From positions 1 through 36,622 of IMG/VR virus record IMGVR_UViG_2531839531_000013: DNA of 36,622 nucleotides; one strand, written 5' to 3'. This document shows positions 511 to 36,622 of the stretch, one piece after another. The stretch's first letter is position 1. Each line of letters begins with the position of its first letter. The notes beneath the pieces are model-generated. The model saw nothing but the letters and a program-made list of their open reading frames with translations. It searched no databases and was not told where the DNA came from. Made by a program: the position numbers and the translations under genes. Source of the DNA: a virus. Taxonomy: Duplodnaviria > Heunggongvirae > Uroviricota > Caudoviricetes.

Positions 511-1284
511 TTACAACTTAAAGAGTTTCGCTTGCCCTGGATTAACAGCTTCGACGTAGTTTTTGACCCCTATTCTGTGCGGCTCATAATTGCTTGAATA
601 GAAATCAATCAGGAAGTCACTCATTTTCTGAGATGTGACTTTCATAACTCCCTTACTCAAAGTTAAATTAAACACGCTAATCTTTGACGATGGTGCCTGA
701 GTTTTACTCATGTTGGCTTGATAACCAGATTTACGCATTGCCACTAGTGCTTCGTCGTAAGCCGCTTGTAATTGGGCCAAATCGTTTGACGAGATGATCA
801 CATCATCCATAAACACACTTAGCTTGAGATCATGATGTTTGTTCAATCGGCGTAGTAAGCTACCAAAATAACTTTTATCTAAGCAGAGGGTTGCAAGTAT
901 TGGAGATTGAACAAAACCAAAAGGGAGGACATGCTTATGTGGACTATGGGACAAGTTTCTTACAGTTGAAAATGTTGAGATTTCCCGCGCTTGAGAATAG
1001 GTGAAGTAGCTCTTTAGATCACGGGTGATACGACTACGGCTCGTTGACTGAAAAAATTGTTTAATATCAACAACGGCAAAAAAATCACTTTTTAAGTGTA
1101 ATCTGGCAGCTTTAAGATGCCCACCAGTTCTTAGATGGTAAAAATAGAGTGGCGGAATCCACTTGTTTCTGACATCCTGAAGTATCTTCCCTCCGACTTT
1201 ACGTGCCTCAACGCTTGGGACATAAACCCAAACCCCGGGCTTAATCTCAAATTTATCTTCCCACCTTTGAACTTCTATTGTCAT
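511..1284 (-). CDS. Compact reverse transcriptase (257 aa), retron-like; family not assignable by eye
   Basis: RT motifs in canonical order: VPSVEARKVGGKI (motif 1-like), FFAVVDIKQFF (motif 2), LPFGFVQSPILATL (motif 4), VFMDDVII (Y/FxDD catalytic motif), NMSKT (motif 6). AT-rich relative to the phage backbone. Confidence 0.8.
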   Translation of the reverse strand: MTIEVQRWEDKFEIKPGVWVYVPSVEARKVGGKILQDVRNKWIPPLYFYHLRTGGHLKAARLHLKSDFFAVVDIKQFFQSTSRSRITRDLKSYFTYSQAREISTFSTVRNLSHSPHKHVLPFGFVQSPILATLCLDKSYFGSLLRRLNKHHDLKLSVFMDDVIISSNDLAQLQAAYDEALVAMRKSGYQANMSKTQAPSSKISVFNLTLSKGVMKVTSQKMSDFLIDFYSSNYEPHRIGVKNYVEAVNPGQAKLFKL

Positions 1285-3097: not shown

Positions 3098-3579
3098 GAC
3101 AGCAGCCCTCCCACCGTTTTACTGATATCGCTTAAGGTAGACGTTGCCGTTTCCTGCAGATTATTCAGTTGCGCACTGAGATCACCGAACATATCGGACA
3201 GGGATTCATCCACCCGTTTGAGCGACAGGGTGAACTCAATCCGGCGCGGCATACCGTCGCGGAAAAACTCCGTTTTAGTCTGATTCAGTCCCTCAATCAC
3301 ATACATGCCATAAATCGTGCCGCTGCCTTCAATCAGGGGCCATGCTTTCCCCTGTTCTGCCATCTGCTCCAGTGCCAGCAACGACAGCCTGCCACCTGTT
3401 ATCTCCGGCATAAGAACACCGGAAAGCGTCAGCATGTCGTTGTCCGGTCCCAGAAACTGCGTGGACGGACGTCGGTTTACCCGGCTGTTTGCCGCATGTC
3501 GCCAGCTGCGTTGATACTGCAGCTCCTGATACGGCACGGTGCGCAGCATAAACACGTACAATCCCAGCACCATCATCAT
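3094..3579 (-). CDS. U: Tail protein U
   Basis: 161 aa between D and tape measure; overlapping stop/start coupling; P2 synteny. Confidence 0.8.
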   Translation of the reverse strand: MMMVLGLYVFMLRTVPYQELQYQRSWRHAANSRVNRRPSTQFLGPDNDMLTLSGVLMPEITGGRLSLLALEQMAEQGKAWPLIEGSGTIYGMYVIEGLNQTKTEFFRDGMPRRIEFTLSLKRVDESLSDMFGDLSAQLNNLQETATSTLSDISKTVGGLLS

Positions 3580-8976: not shown

Positions 8977-9549
8977 TCAGGGGGATTCATTGATCTTATT
9001 TGCCGGAAATTTTCTATAAATGGTAGAAACGCCTACATCAAAAATCAGTGCAATACGCTGTCTTGATTCTCCGGCCTCGAGTAAACGCCCAATCTGTGCC
9101 CACTGTTCGGTGGTCAACTTAGGACGGCGTCCACCTACTCTGCCTTTGGCACGAGCTGCAGCCAGCCCTGCCCTGGTACGTTCAACTATCAGTTCGCGTT
9201 CCATTTCAGCCAGGGCACCCATGACATGAAAAAAGAAACGGCCCATTGGGGTACTGGTATCAATACTGTCAGTCAGGCTTCTGAAATTCACACCACGCTG
9301 GCGCAACTCTTCTATCAGCGTAACAAGATGCCGCATACTGCGCCCCAACCTGTCCAGCTTCCAGACAACCAGCGTGTCTCCTGCCGATAGTGTCCTGAGT
9401 AGTTTTTTCAGCCCCGGTCTGTCGGACTTAGTGCCACTGATTTTGTCCTCAAAAATCTGCTCACATCCCGCGCAGTTCAGTGCATTACGTTGCAAATCGG
9501 TGTTCTGGTCATTTGTTGACACGCGTACATAGCCAATAAGCATGATCAT
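8977..9549 (-). CDS. Serine recombinase, DNA invertase (Cin/Gin/Hin family)
   Basis: MLIGYVRVSTNDQNTDLQRNAL... closely resembles Cin/Gin as recalled, with C-terminal HTH. Start at 9549 or 9543. Confidence 0.9.
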   Translation of the reverse strand: MIMLIGYVRVSTNDQNTDLQRNALNCAGCEQIFEDKISGTKSDRPGLKKLLRTLSAGDTLVVWKLDRLGRSMRHLVTLIEELRQRGVNFRSLTDSIDTSTPMGRFFFHVMGALAEMERELIVERTRAGLAAARAKGRVGGRRPKLTTEQWAQIGRLLEAGESRQRIALIFDVGVSTIYRKFPANKINESP

Positions 9550-9570
9550 CCCCCTGAATAAAAACCGGAG

Positions 9571-9954
9571 ATGATGCCAGTTAGCTGTTACCTCTGCATT
9601 TTCTTAAACGTTGGTTTGGGAGAAGCCAGATATGTCATTCAGCGAGGAGCTAATGCCAATGGTGCGTGGATACGCTGGTCAGATGGTGCAATAGAAGTCT
9701 TTGGAACGGGGGGTTCTAATGATAATGGACTGGCTAAAGTCGTTTATCCAATTGCGCTACCTAAGCTTTCACGTTTTATCAGCATAGCGGAAAGAATAGG
9801 AACGGATTATGGGGGCACATCTAATAATGTTCACGTTTCAATGATCGTGGATGACCAGGTCACTAATACCGGTTTTTATGTCCGCTGCCAGATGTACGAC
9901 GGAACACCATCAACAAGTGCTTTTTCCTGGAGGGTTTATTGTGCGCCTGTTTAA
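9571..9954 (+). CDS. Alternative tail-fibre C-terminal segment, promoterless in this orientation
   Basis: ORF reads through the crossover site (encodes FLNVGLGEA, parallel to TYLGLGEG in H) and continues 110 codons to a stop. Confidence 0.45.
   Translation: MMPVSCYLCIFLNVGLGEARYVIQRGANANGAWIRWSDGAIEVFGTGGSNDNGLAKVVYPIALPKLSRFISIAERIGTDYGGTSNNVHVSMIVDDQVTNTGFYVRCQMYDGTPSTSAFSWRVYCAPV
9599..9624. repeat. Invertase crossover site (hix/gix/cix-like), distal copy
   Basis: Its reverse complement TTCTCCCAAACCAACGTTTAAGAAAA shares a 14-nt arm with the site at 11210..11235 in inverted orientation. Confidence 0.6.
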
Positions 9955-10138
9955 TCCTGTTACTTTGACTGAAGTAATCCCCGGTCTTCATGACGTGACC
10001 GGGGCTGTTGAATTACCAGAAGATAACTGGTTTTTTACTGCATCTGAAATCCCTGAAGGAATGGAAATATCTGTTAACGAGAAGGGAGAACCCATTCTGA
10101 TTGAGATTAAACCGTCTCAGGAGGAACTGGCCAGATGA
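9941..10138 (+). CDS. Short alternative tail-fibre assembly chaperone fragment
   Basis: Starts at GTG overlapping the upstream stop (VRLFNPVTLTEV...); only about 66 aa. Weak call. Confidence 0.3.
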   Translation: MRLFNPVTLTEVIPGLHDVTGAVELPEDNWFFTASEIPEGMEISVNEKGEPILIEIKPSQEELAR

Positions 10139-10712
10139 CATCTGGCGCGGTGCTGGTATCTGTTGCCATCACCGCGTCAGTGTAATCCAGCACGGCGTTA
10201 AGTCGGGTGTTTTCTGCCTGCGTCAGCTTCCGCCCGGCCTGCAATTTCAGTTGAATCAGACTAATGGAAACCATTGCAGCATCAATCAGCGACTGCCGCT
10301 GTGTTTCTGCCATGTCTACTGCTGCTCTATGCTGTGCCTCGGTATCCGTCACCCATTTCTCACCATCCCATTTATCGTATGGCGTTAACGGGGCGATAGT
10401 GGTTGTCTTTTCAGGGTAATCACCCGGAGCTGTGATTTCTTTTGATTCTCCTGTTTCGGTGCTATAGACGATTTCACCGCGATGGTCTGGCACATATTCC
10501 CATGAGTTAAAATCTGCAGAACGGCAAATTGCATAACCAGCTTTATATGAGCCAGGAGCATCTAAACAGGAACATGCCGGGATACCGACACCCACAGCAA
10601 GATATTCGGTTGATGTGGAAATATATTCTCGTGTTTCACCATCATAATTATAAACAGTAATATCTCCCGCCTTTGTGGCGATGAGTTCCTTATTTAATAT
10701 AGCTTTATCCAT
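10107..10712 (-). CDS. G: Tail fibre assembly chaperone (gpG / Tfa family)
   Basis: 201 aa immediately downstream of H with ATGA overlap; Tfa-like C-terminal region. Confidence 0.8.
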   Translation of the reverse strand: MDKAILNKELIATKAGDITVYNYDGETREYISTSTEYLAVGVGIPACSCLDAPGSYKAGYAICRSADFNSWEYVPDHRGEIVYSTETGESKEITAPGDYPEKTTTIAPLTPYDKWDGEKWVTDTEAQHRAAVDMAETQRQSLIDAAMVSISLIQLKLQAGRKLTQAENTRLNAVLDYTDAVMATDTSTAPDVIWPVPPETV

Positions 10713-31171: not shown

Positions 31172-31804
31172 ATGTTAAACATCAGAATGGGTTCCGATAC
31201 GGGAGGTAAAGCAGCTATTGAGAGGCTGCTTGCGGCTTATGGATTCACAACTAAGCAGGCATTAAGTGAGCACCTGAATGTCTCAAAAAGCACTATGGCA
31301 AACAGAGTGTTACGTGACAGCTTTCCTGCTGACTGGATAATTCAGTGCGCACTAGAAACCGGTGTTTCGTTGCTTTGGTTAGCTACAGGACAGGGAAGCA
31401 TGAAAGCAGGATCTGAGACTGAAAAAAGATCTCATAATGAGAACAAACAAGCAATTAAACCGTTATCTAAACTCATAACTCCATCTATTCCTAAAGGAAC
31501 CTTGGAGAATGGACAACTCAGTATTGATGAAGAGATTTTCCTAGACCACAGCATATTACCTGCAAATTATGAAGAATCGATGTTCTTAGAAACCCCTACT
31601 GATTGTTATCTCATCGATAAATCAGTTAAACAAGTCAGCAATGGATTCTGGCTTATCAATATTGATGGAATGATTATTATTGCAAAAATTATGCGGATTC
31701 CCGGCAATAAGATTGTAGTAAATCAAGATGAAGCGTCTTTCGAGTGCTCTGCTGATGATGTGGAAGTTATTGGGCGTGCAGTCAAAGTAATAAAGAGTAT
31801 CTAA
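31172..31804 (+). CDS. cI: CI-like immunity repressor (186 type)
   Basis: 210 aa, cotranscribed with int; N-terminal HTH region resembles 186 CI as recalled. Confidence 0.75.
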   Translation: MLNIRMGSDTGGKAAIERLLAAYGFTTKQALSEHLNVSKSTMANRVLRDSFPADWIIQCALETGVSLLWLATGQGSMKAGSETEKRSHNENKQAIKPLSKLITPSIPKGTLENGQLSIDEEIFLDHSILPANYEESMFLETPTDCYLIDKSVKQVSNGFWLINIDGMIIIAKIMRIPGNKIVVNQDEASFECSADDVEVIGRAVKVIKSI

Positions 31805-31806
31805 AC

Positions 31807-32823
31807 ATGACTGTCAGAAAACAGCCAAACGGCAAATGGTTGTGTGAGTGCTATCCCAATGGACGCAATGGCAAGCGCGTGCGTAAGCAATTTGCTACGA
31901 AAGGAGAAGCCATTGCTTTTGAAAGCTTCACAATGGAAGAAGTGAATAAAAAACCGTGGCTAGGTGAAAAGGATGATCGGCGACGCCTATCAGAATTAAT
32001 TGAGCTTTGGTATTCCCTGTATGGCCAGACACTCGCAGACCCCAAGCGCCTCATGGCGAAACTTAGAATTATCTGTAATGGTCTAGGCGACCCCATCGCC
32101 TCAGAACTGACAGCCGGTGACTTTACAAAATACCGCGAAGCACGGTTAAAAGGCGACGTTCGTAACGAAGACGGCACACTAATGTCGCCAGTAAAACCAC
32201 GCACGGTGAATCTTGAGCAACGTAACCTATCATCGGTTTTCGGCACATTGAAAAAACTAGGCCACTGGTCAGCACCAAATCCTCTCGCCGGGCTGCCAAC
32301 ATTTAAAATCGCTGAGGGGGAACTGGCGTTCCTGACCTCGGAAGAAATTAAACGTCTGCTAGATGCCTGCGCTGATTCTCAAAACCCCAGTCTGCTTTTG
32401 ATTGCAAAAATATGCCTGGCCACCGGCGCACGCTGGAGTGAAGCCGAAAACCTGCAGGGCCATCAGTTATCTAAATACCGCATCACTTATACCAAGACGA
32501 AGGGCAAGAAAAACCGCACCGTGCCGATATCTCAAGATCTGTATGACGAACTCCCCAAGAACAGAGGGAAGCTATTCACCCCGTGCAGAAAAGCCTTTGA
32601 ACGGGCAGTAAAGCGAGCTGGCATCGAGCTGCCAGAGGGCCAATGCACTCACGTGCTACGTCATACATTCGCCAGTCATTTTATGATGAATGGCGGAAAC
32701 ATACTGGTCCTACGCGATATTCTGGGCCATGCCGATATAAAAATGACGATGATTTACGCCCACTTTTCGCCGGATCATCTTGAAGATGCAGTTACTAAAA
32801 ACCCTTTATGCAACTTAAGATAG
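31807..32823 (+). CDS. int: Tyrosine integrase, P2 Int family
   Basis: 338 aa; matches recalled P2 Int over TGARWSEA, HxLRHxFA and ILGH...M.YAHF catalytic regions. Confidence 0.9.
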   Translation: MTVRKQPNGKWLCECYPNGRNGKRVRKQFATKGEAIAFESFTMEEVNKKPWLGEKDDRRRLSELIELWYSLYGQTLADPKRLMAKLRIICNGLGDPIASELTAGDFTKYREARLKGDVRNEDGTLMSPVKPRTVNLEQRNLSSVFGTLKKLGHWSAPNPLAGLPTFKIAEGELAFLTSEEIKRLLDACADSQNPSLLLIAKICLATGARWSEAENLQGHQLSKYRITYTKTKGKKNRTVPISQDLYDELPKNRGKLFTPCRKAFERAVKRAGIELPEGQCTHVLRHTFASHFMMNGGNILVLRDILGHADIKMTMIYAHFSPDHLEDAVTKNPLCNLR

Positions 32824-33138
32824 AGTAACTTATGAAAATAAACTCAAATTATTTACAAATATAATATTCAGCAGGTTATCCATTCTTATTTAACTCTTCA
32901 GACTGAGATTAGATTTTATTTATAGAATAAGATAATTTCATATCACAAAAAACCTGTAAGCCCTCATCTTTGTTGTATAAAAACATAAAAGATGCCATAT
33001 TTAAAAAAGTAGAAAAGCATTGCAATGCAACATTAAAAATAAACCAATAAAAACCAGTCATTAGAAAATGAAAAAAAACAAAAACATTTTTTATCAAAGC
33101 TTCAGTCTGACTACTAGTTTGACTCTGCAATTAACTAT

Positions 33139-33168
33139 CAAGATGATCAATATTTATTGATCATCTTG
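33139..33168. repeat. Perfect 14-bp inverted repeat with 2-bp spacer
   Basis: CAAGATGATCAATA-TT-TATTGATCATCTTG, 34 bp downstream of the deaminase gene stop. Confidence 0.6.
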
Positions 33169-33201
33169 AAGTTGCCCTCAGGAAAGATGAGTATAATATT
33201 T

Positions 33202-34938
33202 CTACTCAAGAAGATATTCTAACTCATCTTTTATCGGGATAACTTGCTCATAAAGTCGGTGATATGACTTCCCAATTGCGCCTCTGAATTGTATTAACTT
33301 TGGTGGCTTGTTACCTATATTAATAATATGGTCTTGAGCTATACCTGGGTAGGGATCAATAAATACAATTTCAGATATACCTAACTGATAAGCTTTTTTC
33401 GCACACAGCTCACAGGGACTGGCAGTTGTATATAACCTCCCCCCCTGAACGCCAATGCCACCATATTTTGCAAGTTGTAAAAATGCGTTTTCCTCAGCAT
33501 GTAATGCACGTGTATGAACTTGATTACCTTTTTTATCTTTATCAAGATCATTATGTATATCTTTAAAACAATAAGATAAGTTCCTGCCTCTATAAATATC
33601 ACCAGTTTTATCTATCGCCCTAAAATTTAATAGTTTCTCATTAGCTTTAATTCTGAAAGAACTATTATTTCTCTCATAATGACTGTACACTTTTTCATCA
33701 AAGTCGTTCATTAGGCCATCTAGCGATCTCATAGAGCAAGGAATCTGACCGTTGGCGACATCATTCCAACCCACTGATTTTATTGAATTTTCACCATCAG
33801 TTACTACAGCTCCCACCTGTCTAGATATACAACCAGAGTTTAATTTTACCGTATACGCAACTTGCATAACCCTTTCCATTGCAGTAGGTGTTATCAGACC
33901 AGGATGCTTCATCAGTGCGATGTACCACGCTAATTGTGCTTTTAAAATATTGTCATTATCAAATTCATTTTTTGGGTTAAAAATGTGTATATCTGATAGT
34001 TCAATGCATTTAGTTACATTTGGATTAGTGAGATGTTTGTAAGAGTTATCACCTTTACCTGACTCTACAGAATCTATTTCCTCTATCTGCTTTTCAGAAA
34101 ACTTATGTAGTTTCCGCAAATAGTTTGTTCGATGTTCATCTGGGGCATTTATTGACATTAAATGAAATGCAGAATATCTATCCTTAAAAAATTTTGCTTC
34201 ATATGGATTTCTAATAGCATCTATGACAATTAATGCGTTATCTCTTTTGCTTTTTCTTATTAATTTAATAACCCTATTAATAGTTTCCGGCAAATGAAAA
34301 ACAGATTTAGGTATAAACTCTTTATCTTCAAAATCGACTTCAATACGCCCACGGCGTCTAATTGACTTACCTGCTAACTGATAGACTGAAACATATAAAT
34401 TTGAGTTTATCGCATTTAGTTCAGCTTTGAATTCCTTAGTAAATTTTCTAACTAACCTCAAAATTGATATAAATTTATTAATCGTTTTTTCATTAAGCTT
34501 CAATTCACTATTATGATCAAGCAAATTCTCAATTACATTTTTAAATCTTGTTAAAATGAGATTATCTGAAAATACACCAAAAGTTAATACATTATCTAAA
34601 TGCTCTTTACTGATAGATTTATTAGATGATAGAATAAACTCAGAAGCTTCTTCAACTGTTAACATCAAAAGATACGCTGAGATTAGGTCACTCACCTTAA
34701 TTGAGTAAAAATTTTCCCAGTGATTTTCTGCGAATTTTTTAACTATATTATAACGATGGACATCCAATCCCTTGTAAAAACCCTGTAATTTACTTACATC
34801 AGGGAAGACTGTTTTTTCGTTTTCAAGAATATTAGCTGTTGTTGTGCAACCAGAACCAGTTCGACCTGTCAAACCGACTAAAATAAACTGCCCATTTTCA
34901 AGGAAAAGCTCACTAACGAATTTTTTTTCTTTCATCAC
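33202..34938 (-). CDS. P-loop NTPase/kinase-like domain fused to a cytidine/dCMP deaminase domain (AvcD/DCD-like)
   Basis: N-terminal glycine-rich loop VGLTGRTGSGCTT; C-terminal zinc-deaminase signature HAEENA ... SPCELCAKK; 578 aa; very AT-rich. Confidence 0.75.
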   Translation of the reverse strand: MMKEKKFVSELFLENGQFILVGLTGRTGSGCTTTANILENEKTVFPDVSKLQGFYKGLDVHRYNIVKKFAENHWENFYSIKVSDLISAYLLMLTVEEASEFILSSNKSISKEHLDNVLTFGVFSDNLILTRFKNVIENLLDHNSELKLNEKTINKFISILRLVRKFTKEFKAELNAINSNLYVSVYQLAGKSIRRRGRIEVDFEDKEFIPKSVFHLPETINRVIKLIRKSKRDNALIVIDAIRNPYEAKFFKDRYSAFHLMSINAPDEHRTNYLRKLHKFSEKQIEEIDSVESGKGDNSYKHLTNPNVTKCIELSDIHIFNPKNEFDNDNILKAQLAWYIALMKHPGLITPTAMERVMQVAYTVKLNSGCISRQVGAVVTDGENSIKSVGWNDVANGQIPCSMRSLDGLMNDFDEKVYSHYERNNSSFRIKANEKLLNFRAIDKTGDIYRGRNLSYCFKDIHNDLDKDKKGNQVHTRALHAEENAFLQLAKYGGIGVQGGRLYTTASPCELCAKKAYQLGISEIVFIDPYPGIAQDHIINIGNKPPKLIQFRGAIGKSYHRLYEQVIPIKDELEYLLE

Positions 34939-35130
34939 GTCCCACTTATGAATGTAAGAATATTCAACATATTAATTATAATTTATTAACTCATTTTGTT
35001 CTAGATACTTGATGTAATGGCGGCACTTTGGCGACGGAGCATTAAAAACGCGTAAGACGAGCAAATACAACAAAACACTAACACATTGTTTTTAAATATA
35101 AATAGCTGTTTTTACTATACTAAAAATGGT

Positions 35131-35175
35131 ATGTAGGAATTTCGGACGCGGGTTCAACTCCCGCCAGCTCCACCA
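35131..35175 (+). repeat. attR core: displaced original ssrA 3' end
   Basis: Identical to 358..402 and followed by the native ssrA terminator. Confidence 0.9.
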
Positions 35176-35221
35176 AAATTCTCCATCGGTGATTACCAGA
35201 GTCATCCGATGAAGTCCTAAG

Positions 35222-35380: not shown

Positions 35381-36622
35381 ATGGCAAGACAAACCAAACC
35401 TCTATCCGTTAAAGAAATAGAATCAGCCAAACCCAAGGAGGCGGACTACGTTCTCTATGATGGCGATGGCCTTGAGCTACTCATTAAATCCAGCGGGAGT
35501 AAAATCTGGCAGTTTCGCTACATTCGCCCTGTCACCAAGAAACGAGCAAAGAAGAGCATAGGCTCCTACCCGTCAGTTACCCTTGCCGATGCCAGAAACT
35601 ACCGTGCAGAGTCCCGCTCACTACTGGCTAAACAGATCGATCCGCAGGAACATCAGCAAGAACAATTGCGCAGTTCGCTGGAAGCCAAAACCAACACTTT
35701 CCAACTCGTAGCTGAACGTTGGTGGAATGTGAAGAAAGCCAGTGTGACAGAGGACTATGCGGAAGATATCTGGCGCTCTCTTGAAAGAGACGTCTTTCCT
35801 GCGATTGGCGACGTTAGCGTTACAGATATTAAAGCTCATACACTGGTTCAGGCCGTACAACCGGTTCAGGCCAGAGGAGCACTGGAAACTGTTCGTCGCC
35901 TGTGCCAACGTATTAATGAGGTCATGATCTATGCCCAGAACACAGGGCTGATTGATGCTGTTCCCAGCGTTAATATCGGTAAAGCCTTCGAGAAGCCTCA
36001 GAAAAAGAACATGCCCAGCATTCGACCGGATCAGCTACCTCAGTTAATGCAGACGATGCGAACAGCCAGCATTAGCCTTTCCACACGCTGCCTGTTCATG
36101 TGGCAACTTCTTACTATTACCCGCCCTGCCGAAGCGGCTGAAGCTCTCTGGGAAGAGGTAGACATAGAAGCGCGAGAGTGGAAGATTCCTGCAGCACGCA
36201 TGAAAATGAACCGCGACCATACTGTTCCATTGTCAGATGAAGCAATTGCGATACTAGAGATGATGAAGCCGTTAAGTGGAAATCGAGAATTTATCTTTCC
36301 CAGCCGCATCAAGCCAAACCAGCCGATGAACAGTCAGACCGTAAACGCATCGCTAAAACGCGCAGGTTTTGGTGGGGTGCTCGTTTCACACGGCCTGCGA
36401 TCTATCGCCAGTACAGCCCTTAATGAGCAGGGATTTCCACCTGATGTTATTGAGGCTGCACTTGCTCATGTGGATAAGAATGAGGTTCGTCGTGCGTATA
36501 ACCGTAGTGATTATCTTGAGCAGCGACGGCCTATGATGCAGTGGTGGGCTGATTTTGTGATGGCTGCAGATCACGGTAGTATGATTGAAGGAGGGATAAA
36601 GGCAATGCGGTTAGTTGGATGA
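35381..36622 (+). CDS. intA: Tyrosine integrase of a second ssrA-associated island (CP4-57 IntA-like)
   Basis: 413 aa, MARQTKPLSVKEIESAKPKEADYVLYDGDGLELLIKSSGSKIWQFRY... resembles E. coli IntA as recalled; lies directly downstream of the displaced ssrA end. Confidence 0.85.
   Translation: MARQTKPLSVKEIESAKPKEADYVLYDGDGLELLIKSSGSKIWQFRYIRPVTKKRAKKSIGSYPSVTLADARNYRAESRSLLAKQIDPQEHQQEQLRSSLEAKTNTFQLVAERWWNVKKASVTEDYAEDIWRSLERDVFPAIGDVSVTDIKAHTLVQAVQPVQARGALETVRRLCQRINEVMIYAQNTGLIDAVPSVNIGKAFEKPQKKNMPSIRPDQLPQLMQTMRTASISLSTRCLFMWQLLTITRPAEAAEALWEEVDIEAREWKIPAARMKMNRDHTVPLSDEAIAILEMMKPLSGNREFIFPSRIKPNQPMNSQTVNASLKRAGFGGVLVSHGLRSIASTALNEQGFPPDVIEAALAHVDKNEVRRAYNRSDYLEQRRPMMQWWADFVMAADHGSMIEGGIKAMRLVG

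Follow-up and report, generated by a model that had tools for sequence, protein, structure and literature searches.

The 36,622-nucleotide (nt) viral DNA analyzed in this study (IMG/VR record IMGVR_UViG_2531839531_000013; hereafter the window) carries a gene for a kinase-deaminase fusion protein at 33202..34935. We consider it very probable (about 0.9) that this gene encodes an anti-phage deoxycytidine triphosphate (dCTP) deaminase of the DCD/AvcD family, and that it is single-gene "moron" cargo between the integrase gene int and the phage attachment site attP of a Fels-2/186-like prophage integrated at ssrA. It is an intact copy of a characterized anti-phage enzyme carried as prophage cargo, and the family, the mechanism and the locus type are already known. 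The gene appears to be a sister allele of a validated defense gene, the DCD of Escherichia coli U09, from the same prophage slot.

The deaminase gene and its family

The gene and its two domains are arranged as follows:
33202..34938, minus strand: deaminase open reading frame (ORF) as given in the ORF list, 578 amino acids (aa) from an in-frame GTG at 34938
33202..34935, minus strand: coding sequence (CDS) of the anti-phage dCTP deaminase (DCD/AvcD family), 577 aa from ATG at 34935, stop codon TAG at 33202-33204
33916..34935, minus strand: N-terminal domain with a nucleoside monophosphate (NMP)-kinase fold, approximately residues 1-340
33205..33888, minus strand: C-terminal zinc dCMP/dCTP-deaminase domain, approximately residues 350-577

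RefSeq places the start one codon after the GTG, at ATG 34935, in WP_000660070.1, which is encoded by the identical gene in E. coli TUM1887 and is labeled "anti-phage dCTP deaminase". The earlier note on this DNA had described the 578-aa ORF as a P-loop-like N-terminal domain joined to a C-terminal domain with HAEENA and PCELC motifs, and translation, profile searches and fold all confirmed this architecture. The note had also read the protein as a DCD/AvcD-type kinase-deaminase, and this assignment was supported by the NCBIfam equivalog NF041025 ("anti-phage dCTP deaminase"), which was matched with 423.7 bits against a cut-off of 400, over positions 1-437 of 437 in the profile and residues 18-570 of the protein. 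The PADLOC dCTPase model was matched at 2.9e-145; the profile E-values of 8e-127 and 2.9e-145 are far beyond chance. More than 4,600 homologs were found, most of which carry the name "anti-phage dCTP deaminase", and the family ranges over Gamma- and Betaproteobacteria.

The motifs of both domains were located by translation. A non-canonical P-loop, GLTGRTGSGCTT, is encoded at 34840-34875; its core is GSGCT without lysine, and the position of the Walker A lysine is taken by Cys30 (GSGC30T; 34846-34848), which is invariant in 24 homologs with 58-89% identity to the window protein. A Walker-B-like motif, VIDAIRNPYE, follows at 34198-34227 in the same domain. The invariant Cys-for-Lys exchange in Walker A suggests a role in nucleotide binding or regulation for the "kinase" domain, as opposed to conventional phosphotransfer. 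In the deaminase domain, the signatures HAEENA and PCELC are encoded at 33484-33501 and 33403-33417, and C369 and C400 at 33829-33831 and 33736-33738. Pfam recognized a dCMP_cyt_deam_1 domain (1.3e-14) and returned P-loop matches below threshold only. Sequence searches of the PDB found stand-alone dCMP deaminases only, which match the C-terminal part. Since the PDB profile search gave no sequence relative of the N-terminal domain, this domain was assessed by fold comparison. An AlphaFold model built with 24 homologs reached a mean predicted local distance difference test (pLDDT) score of 74.8 and a predicted template modeling (pTM) score of 0.71, with pLDDT values of 80-94 in the N-terminal domain. 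In the model, the kinase-deaminase fusion is thus confirmed by predicted fold as well as by motif.

The window protein has the features expected of a DCD, namely an N-terminal kinase-like domain with the nucleotide-binding loop (G29/C30 in the E. coli AW1.7 enzyme), a C-terminal zinc deaminase domain with H-A-E and P-C-x-x-C, a length above 350 aa (577 aa), and a location in defense or mobile-element DNA (prophage cargo in a described hotspot). By profile and fold, it also shows the P-loop-kinase-like plus dCMP-deaminase architecture of AvcD toxins.

Function has been demonstrated for two E. coli relatives. Tal et al. reported that the U09 and AW1.7 genes both protected E. coli MG1655 (10.1101/2021.04.26.441389; Nat Microbiol 2022). 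In the same work, the AW1.7 DCD depleted dCTP, dCDP and dCMP on T7 infection and reduced plating; defense was lost in the G29A/C30A and C370A/C401A mutants, which makes both domains essential, and T7 escaped through gp5.7 (10.1101/2021.04.26.441389). The earlier note had called for an alignment to characterized DCD proteins. This alignment bore out its reading: the AW1.7 DCD (WP_045268677.1; 576 aa) and the window protein (577 aa) share 72% identity from end to end and have the same two domains. The P-loop GLTGRTGSGCTT, HAEENA and PCELC are identical in the two proteins, and the residues mutated in AW1.7 (G29/C30 and C370/C401) have conserved equivalents in the window protein. The two genes differ in setting, the AW1.7 gene being part of an integrase island at tRNA-Phe and the window gene part of a P2-family prophage; the AW1.7 flanks are unrelated to those of the window.

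The U09 gene is closer in location. Under its native promoter, the U09 DCD defended against several phages, and the 399 nt upstream of the gene in the construct comprise host flank, ssrA attachment (att) core, attP arm and leader (Table S5, 10.1101/2021.04.26.441389). This upstream sequence is 98.3% identical to that of a second allele group in E. coli (group 2, represented by strain E47) and 99.2% identical to an IMG/VR contig, and 237 nt of it are 92% identical to window 35176-34939. The U09 DCD therefore belongs to the same locus type as the window gene, with the ssrA att core, the attP arm and an 81-nt leader, although the host DNA past the right attachment site, attR, differs between the two. 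From these 399 upstream nt we infer that the U09 coding sequence is of the group-2 type. The window carries the group-1 allele, which differs from group 2 (U09-type) by approximately 15 aa and by 10% in the leader; the -10 box reads TATAAT in the window allele and TACAAT in the U09-type allele. The group-2 protein is approximately 97% identical to the window protein, and the ratio of nonsynonymous to synonymous substitution rates (dN/dS) between these two natural alleles is 0.16, which shows that the deaminase gene is under purifying selection.

The slot between int and the attachment site

The elements that define the location of the gene are listed below:
31172-31804: CI repressor gene, preceding int (ORFs and RefSeq annotation)
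31807..32823, plus strand: tyrosine integrase gene (int), convergent with the deaminase gene (RefSeq and tyrosine-recombinase profile matches)
35017..35130: attP arm, a recombination site and not cargo (alignment to Fels-2, SEN8 and Cartapus)
35131..35177, plus strand: attR core, a 47-bp copy of the ssrA 3' end (partial match to transfer-messenger RNA, tmRNA)
358-404: attL core, inside an intact tmRNA gene at 40-402 (tmRNA identified by ARAGORN and Rfam)

The prophage, 34.8 kb long, lies between perfect 47-bp direct repeats (358-404 and 35131-35177) that correspond to the 3' end of ssrA; its CI, int, CII, Fil and related genes mark it as Fels-2/186-like, within the P2 family. According to the earlier note, the gene sits between int and attR, where the AT content of the window is highest, and pushes attP 2.3 kb away from int. 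Both statements hold: the GC content of 34001-35000 is 0.298, the lowest of the window (next-lowest 0.366), and the distance from the int stop codon (32823) to the att core is 2307 bp. In Fels-2 and SEN8, where the slot contains no cargo, the homolog of window 35017-35154 starts only 3 bp past the int stop. As the attP arm follows the int stop directly in these phages, the cargo module of the window is delimited to 32824-35016; its GC content is 0.313, compared with 0.507 for the prophage. The attP arm is 81-85% identical to the int-proximal arm of the deaminase-free phages Fels-2, SEN8 and Cartapus, but only 77-82% identical in phages with other deaminase allele groups.

The slot is used repeatedly. 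In Escherichia phage Cartapus, this junction of int and attP arm is occupied by a RES-domain gene, which is co-directional with int, in contrast to the convergent deaminase gene of the window. The int-att interval holds 3% of P2 defense systems and has been described as a minor hotspot (PMC13586616, NAR 2026). Three divergent deaminase alleles occupy it across E. coli genomes and IMG/VR contigs, always convergent with int. Besides the window type, these are the TW10598-type (74% aa identity) and JX21CE8-type (69%) deaminases, which fill the same slot in other E. coli prophages and whose stop codons lie 6-13 nt from that of int. The window locus occurs in 20 of 5,426 complete E. coli genomes and a DNA-level homolog of any kind in 44, with nearly all homologs in those 44 genomes annotated as "anti-phage dCTP deaminase". 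Other alleles are located in the tRNA-Phe island (AW1.7), beside serine recombinases (LR-29-1) and in an integrative and conjugative element (LF82).

The DNA past the att core varies among lysogens. In the window, attR is followed by the displaced ssrA terminator (stem-loop 35236-35250) and then by a CP4-57-type integrase gene at 35381-36622 (NF007246, 931 bits). Because this integrase gene directly follows attR, two mobile elements stand in tandem at ssrA. The neighbor of attR is an IS3-disrupted integrase gene in TUM1887, and another integrase gene with a SIR2-family gene in E47.

The leader and the search for a partner RNA

Two non-coding stretches flank the deaminase gene within the cargo module:
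34936..35016, minus strand: cargo-specific leader/promoter region of 81 nt, its border with the attP arm taken from the alignment of Fels-2, SEN8 and Cartapus
32824..33201: 3' flank, 378 nt, non-coding, GC content 0.257, between the int and deaminase stop codons

In the lysogen, the gene would be transcribed from its own short promoter and leader within the 81 nt next to the attP arm, and, as in the published work on close relatives, the enzyme would stay latent in the uninfected cell. Shut-off of host transcription by an infecting phage would activate the enzyme, which would then deaminate dCTP, dCDP and dCMP to deoxyuridine nucleotides; phage DNA replication would stall once the dCTP pool was drained. 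Both the kinase-fold domain with its Cys-for-Lys P-loop and the zinc deaminase domain would be required. By analogy with these relatives, the window allele may be expected to deplete dCTP upon infection and to lower phage plating.

The leader contains TATAAT at 34980-34975, a weak -35 element, TAGAAC, at 35003-34998 with a 17-nt spacer, and a Shine-Dalgarno-like GGGA right before the start codon; the predicted leader transcript is approximately 30 nt long. The TW10598 and JX21CE8 alleles have a -10-like motif in the same position. These motifs point to a promoter in the 81-nt leader. The leaders of the three prophage alleles measure 81 (window), 95 and 108 nt, and because they leave room for only 81-108 nt, a canonical AvcI gene is excluded in this group of prophage-slot alleles.

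AvcI is the RNA partner of AvcD in the AvcID system (DcdV-DifV of Vibrio cholerae VSP-1 and its homologs), whose toxin has the same P-loop-kinase-like plus dCMP-deaminase architecture (PMC10511110). Judging from the published S52K "Walker A" mutant, V. cholerae AvcD would also lack the canonical Walker A lysine. AvcD deaminates dCTP and dCMP and is activated by transcription shut-off; AvcI lies on the same strand immediately 5' of avcD, with which it is co-transcribed, and has a minimum length of 152-174 nt (approximately 171) and a native length of approximately 280 nt (PMC10511110). The likeness of the window protein to V. cholerae AvcD is one of architecture and published description. The PCxxC residues are 411-414 in V. 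cholerae AvcD and 508-511 in the window protein, which leaves a difference of approximately 100 residues upstream of the active site. The homolog of enterotoxigenic E. coli (ETEC) H10407 was undetectable at the DNA level with the E. coli alleles studied here: blastn with three divergent E. coli alleles, which matched 44 genomes, did not find the validated H10407 AvcID locus.

The earlier note had suggested that the AT-rich flanks (32824..33201 and 34939..35130) might encode an AvcI-like partner RNA. In a canonical AvcID type III toxin-antitoxin system, such an RNA, transcribed from the minus strand of the 5' flank 34939-35130, would inhibit the deaminase until shut-off let the RNA decay. The deaminase belongs to the same broad family as AvcD, and in V. 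cholerae, V. parahaemolyticus, P. mirabilis and ETEC H10407 a same-strand 5' cognate RNA was needed to neutralize AvcD (PMC10511110). Since cognate AvcI RNAs have no mutual sequence similarity (PMC10511110), missing AvcI homology is no evidence of absence. That T7 mutants escaping the AW1.7 DCD are affected in a host-transcription shut-off factor suits a labile inhibitor, and family loci of other species mostly have 250-525 nt of upstream non-coding DNA, with a conserved upstream stretch of approximately 225 nt in the AW1.7 clade. The window, however, offers a gap of just 192 nt between start codon and att core, against the approximately 171 nt (native 280 nt) that AvcI needs on the same strand 5' of the gene. 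The attP arm takes up 114 of the 192 nt and is equally conserved in phages without the deaminase; the remaining 81-nt leader must also house the promoter, and the DNA beyond the att core is inconsistent between lysogens.

Computational searches of the 5' region were likewise negative. Compared with shuffled sequences, no significant fold was found for the 192-nt region (z +0.79) or for the three leaders (z +0.57 in the window, -0.34 and +0.70 in the others), and no terminator was predicted between the 192-nt region and the deaminase gene. Rfam searches of both flanks, at gathering and permissive thresholds, yielded nothing but noise apart from the tmRNA remnant at attR. The leader differs from that of group 2 at 8 of 81 positions (10%), compared with 4.5% at third positions of the CDS, which indicates no excess conservation. 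An nhmmer search with the upstream element of the AW1.7 clade gave no match in the window, and the defending AW1.7 construct begins only 83 nt upstream of the ATG (Tal et al. Table S5, 10.1101/2021.04.26.441389); an AvcI-sized upstream RNA is therefore unneeded in a relative of 72% identity. That the AW1.7 gene could be maintained with so little upstream DNA also speaks, indirectly, against toxicity of the deaminase on its own. AvcD is paired with a required upstream small RNA on the same strand, whereas in the window no such element fits or is detectable. The suggestion of a partner RNA was thus not upheld, and we conclude from these sequence comparisons that a canonical AvcI is in all likelihood absent beside the deaminase gene; regulation of the canonical AvcID type is improbable here. 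An unconventional RNA is possible, either one that overlaps the CDS or att site or one that arises by antisense read-through from cI-int.

The upstream DNA of the AW1.7 DCD was also compared across genera. A stretch of approximately 225-260 nt (AW1.7 locus 3235-3494) is common to Buttiauxella, Pseudocitrobacter and Erwinia (96-99.7% identity) and occurs in Yersinia pekkanenii at 73-75%. The Yersinia value is about equal to the third-codon-position identity (76%), and the stretch is therefore not clearly constrained. It holds a promoter-like TTGATT-17-GATAAT and a T-rich hairpin-like segment; the construct of Tal et al. retained only its last 83 nt.

A non-canonical regulator, either an RNA from the 3' flank or an antisense transcript arising by read-through from cI-int, could restrain the enzyme or its mRNA in the lysogen. 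The 378-nt 3' flank is exclusive to this allele, being confined to its 20 E. coli carrier genomes, and is long enough for an RNA of approximately 280 nt. It contains a perfect 14-bp inverted repeat with a 4-nt loop at 33138-33169, TCAAGATGATCAAT-AAAT-ATTGATCATCTTGA, located 32 nt past the deaminase stop. This hairpin is significant (z -6.9 and -8.0) and invariant between the allele groups while the neighboring bases vary. Antisense transcription is geometrically plausible because int and the deaminase gene are convergent, with near-touching stops in the TW10598 and JX21CE8 alleles. Nevertheless, we regard regulation of this kind as very unlikely. Loci of the TW10598 and JX21CE8 types lack the 3' flank, which is therefore no general requirement. 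Between the allele groups it diverges by 6.6% with 4 indels, faster than synonymous sites; among 7 variants, 0 of 101 predicted pairs covary, and the overall fold reaches a z of only -1.62. When both flanks were compared by BLAST with 54 related loci, relatives appeared only within the window's own allele group, and the 3' flank has no homolog beside any other family member. Promoter and terminator sites found by consensus scan in this region are no commoner than in shuffled sequence, and the AW1.7 gene functions without a prophage context. No U-tract accompanies the hairpin on either strand. Its probable role is that of a terminator or insulator separating int from the convergent deaminase gene, or else that of a protein-binding palindrome. 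A 73-aa ORF at 32909-33130 was rejected as coding, as it is unannotated in RefSeq and interrupted by indels in the other allele.

It is scarcely credible that the protein is a metabolic dCMP deaminase of the ComEB or T4 Cd type for phage thymidylate supply, or an APOBEC-like nucleic-acid mutator: its catalytic domain has the dCMP_cyt_deam_1 fold common to T4 Cd and ComEB and gives a faint APOBEC_N match (E 0.073), but the ComEB model gives 37 bits where 219 are required, metabolic dCMP deaminases have a length of 140-190 aa and lack a kinase-fold domain, the full-length match is to the defense equivalog, the gene occupies a cargo slot of the prophage that is expressed in lysogens, away from the replication genes, and the AW1.7 relative depleted free deoxycytidine nucleotides, from which Tal et al. 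concluded that it defends by dCTP depletion.

Several points weigh against the assignment of the window gene as a self-contained anti-phage dCTP deaminase. The deaminase domain of the AlphaFold model is of low confidence in places and moderately confident overall. The equivalence of U09 and group 2 is drawn from 399 upstream nt and not from the U09 coding sequence; the window protein is close but not 100% identical to the group-2 (U09-type) allele, and function has been shown for relatives only. A consensus promoter scan called no promoter upstream of the deaminase gene. All four AvcD homologs tested by Hsueh et al. needed the cognate upstream RNA for non-toxicity (PMC10511110), and a DCD with an 81-83-nt leader would have to stay silent in some other way.

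A further, tentative proposal, which we consider possible but doubtful, is that the prophage-slot DCDs (window, TW10598 and JX21CE8 types) may be a compact single-gene branch of AvcD that has dropped the upstream AvcI RNA. Silencing in such a branch could be provided by the Cys-for-Lys domain, by an RNA element embedded in the leader, or by antisense transcription from cI-int.

Other cargo of the prophage and significance

The same prophage carries genes in other hotspots, namely a reverse transcriptase (RT) gene and genes for DUF4145 and HNH proteins. The RT (257 aa, 511-1284, minus strand) is encoded between attL and an Ogr-like ORF at 1688-1939. It matches Pfam RVT_1 (1.8e-21) and PADLOC retron-type RT models (up to 7.8e-18), but reaches just 49.5 bits with the NCBIfam model for the retron St85 RT, which has a cut-off of 235. 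A 62-aa ORF with a hydrophobic helix (1253-1441) overlaps the RT ORF, and both lie in AT-rich DNA at the other attP arm. Rfam found no retron msr/msd RNA in 400-2100. The RT presumably resembles the Abi-P2 reverse transcriptase of the Z/fun variable locus of P2.

The main P2 defense hotspot corresponds to 23522-25908 (minus strand; GC content 0.37-0.44), between a portal-like gene (22476-23513) and a gpA-like gene (25960-28374). It encodes a 232-aa DUF4145 protein with a weak match to PADLOC PD-T7-4 (1.2e-6), a 239-aa protein with an HNH-endonuclease domain, and a DinI-like protein; this cargo may constitute an uncharacterized two-gene defense module. Elsewhere in the window, a Hin/Gin-type serine invertase gene (8977-9549; Resolvase 2.3e-53) adjoins ORFs for a tail-fiber C-terminal part and for tail-fiber assembly, and 8977-10712 is an invertible host-range segment, ordinary in this phage group.

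In sum, the gene family, the mechanism and the U09 locus type were published in 2021-2022 and the int-att slot has also been described, so that the discovery value of the window gene is small. This study documents the U09-type DCD as cargo that a prophage carries in the interval from int to the attP arm. The leader room of 81-108 nt sharpens a question of the field, namely how DCD-type enzymes stay inactive before infection. If the prophage-slot DCDs do form a single-gene branch, comparison with AvcID would show how a nucleotide-depleting toxin can sense transcription shut-off in the absence of a dedicated antitoxin gene.

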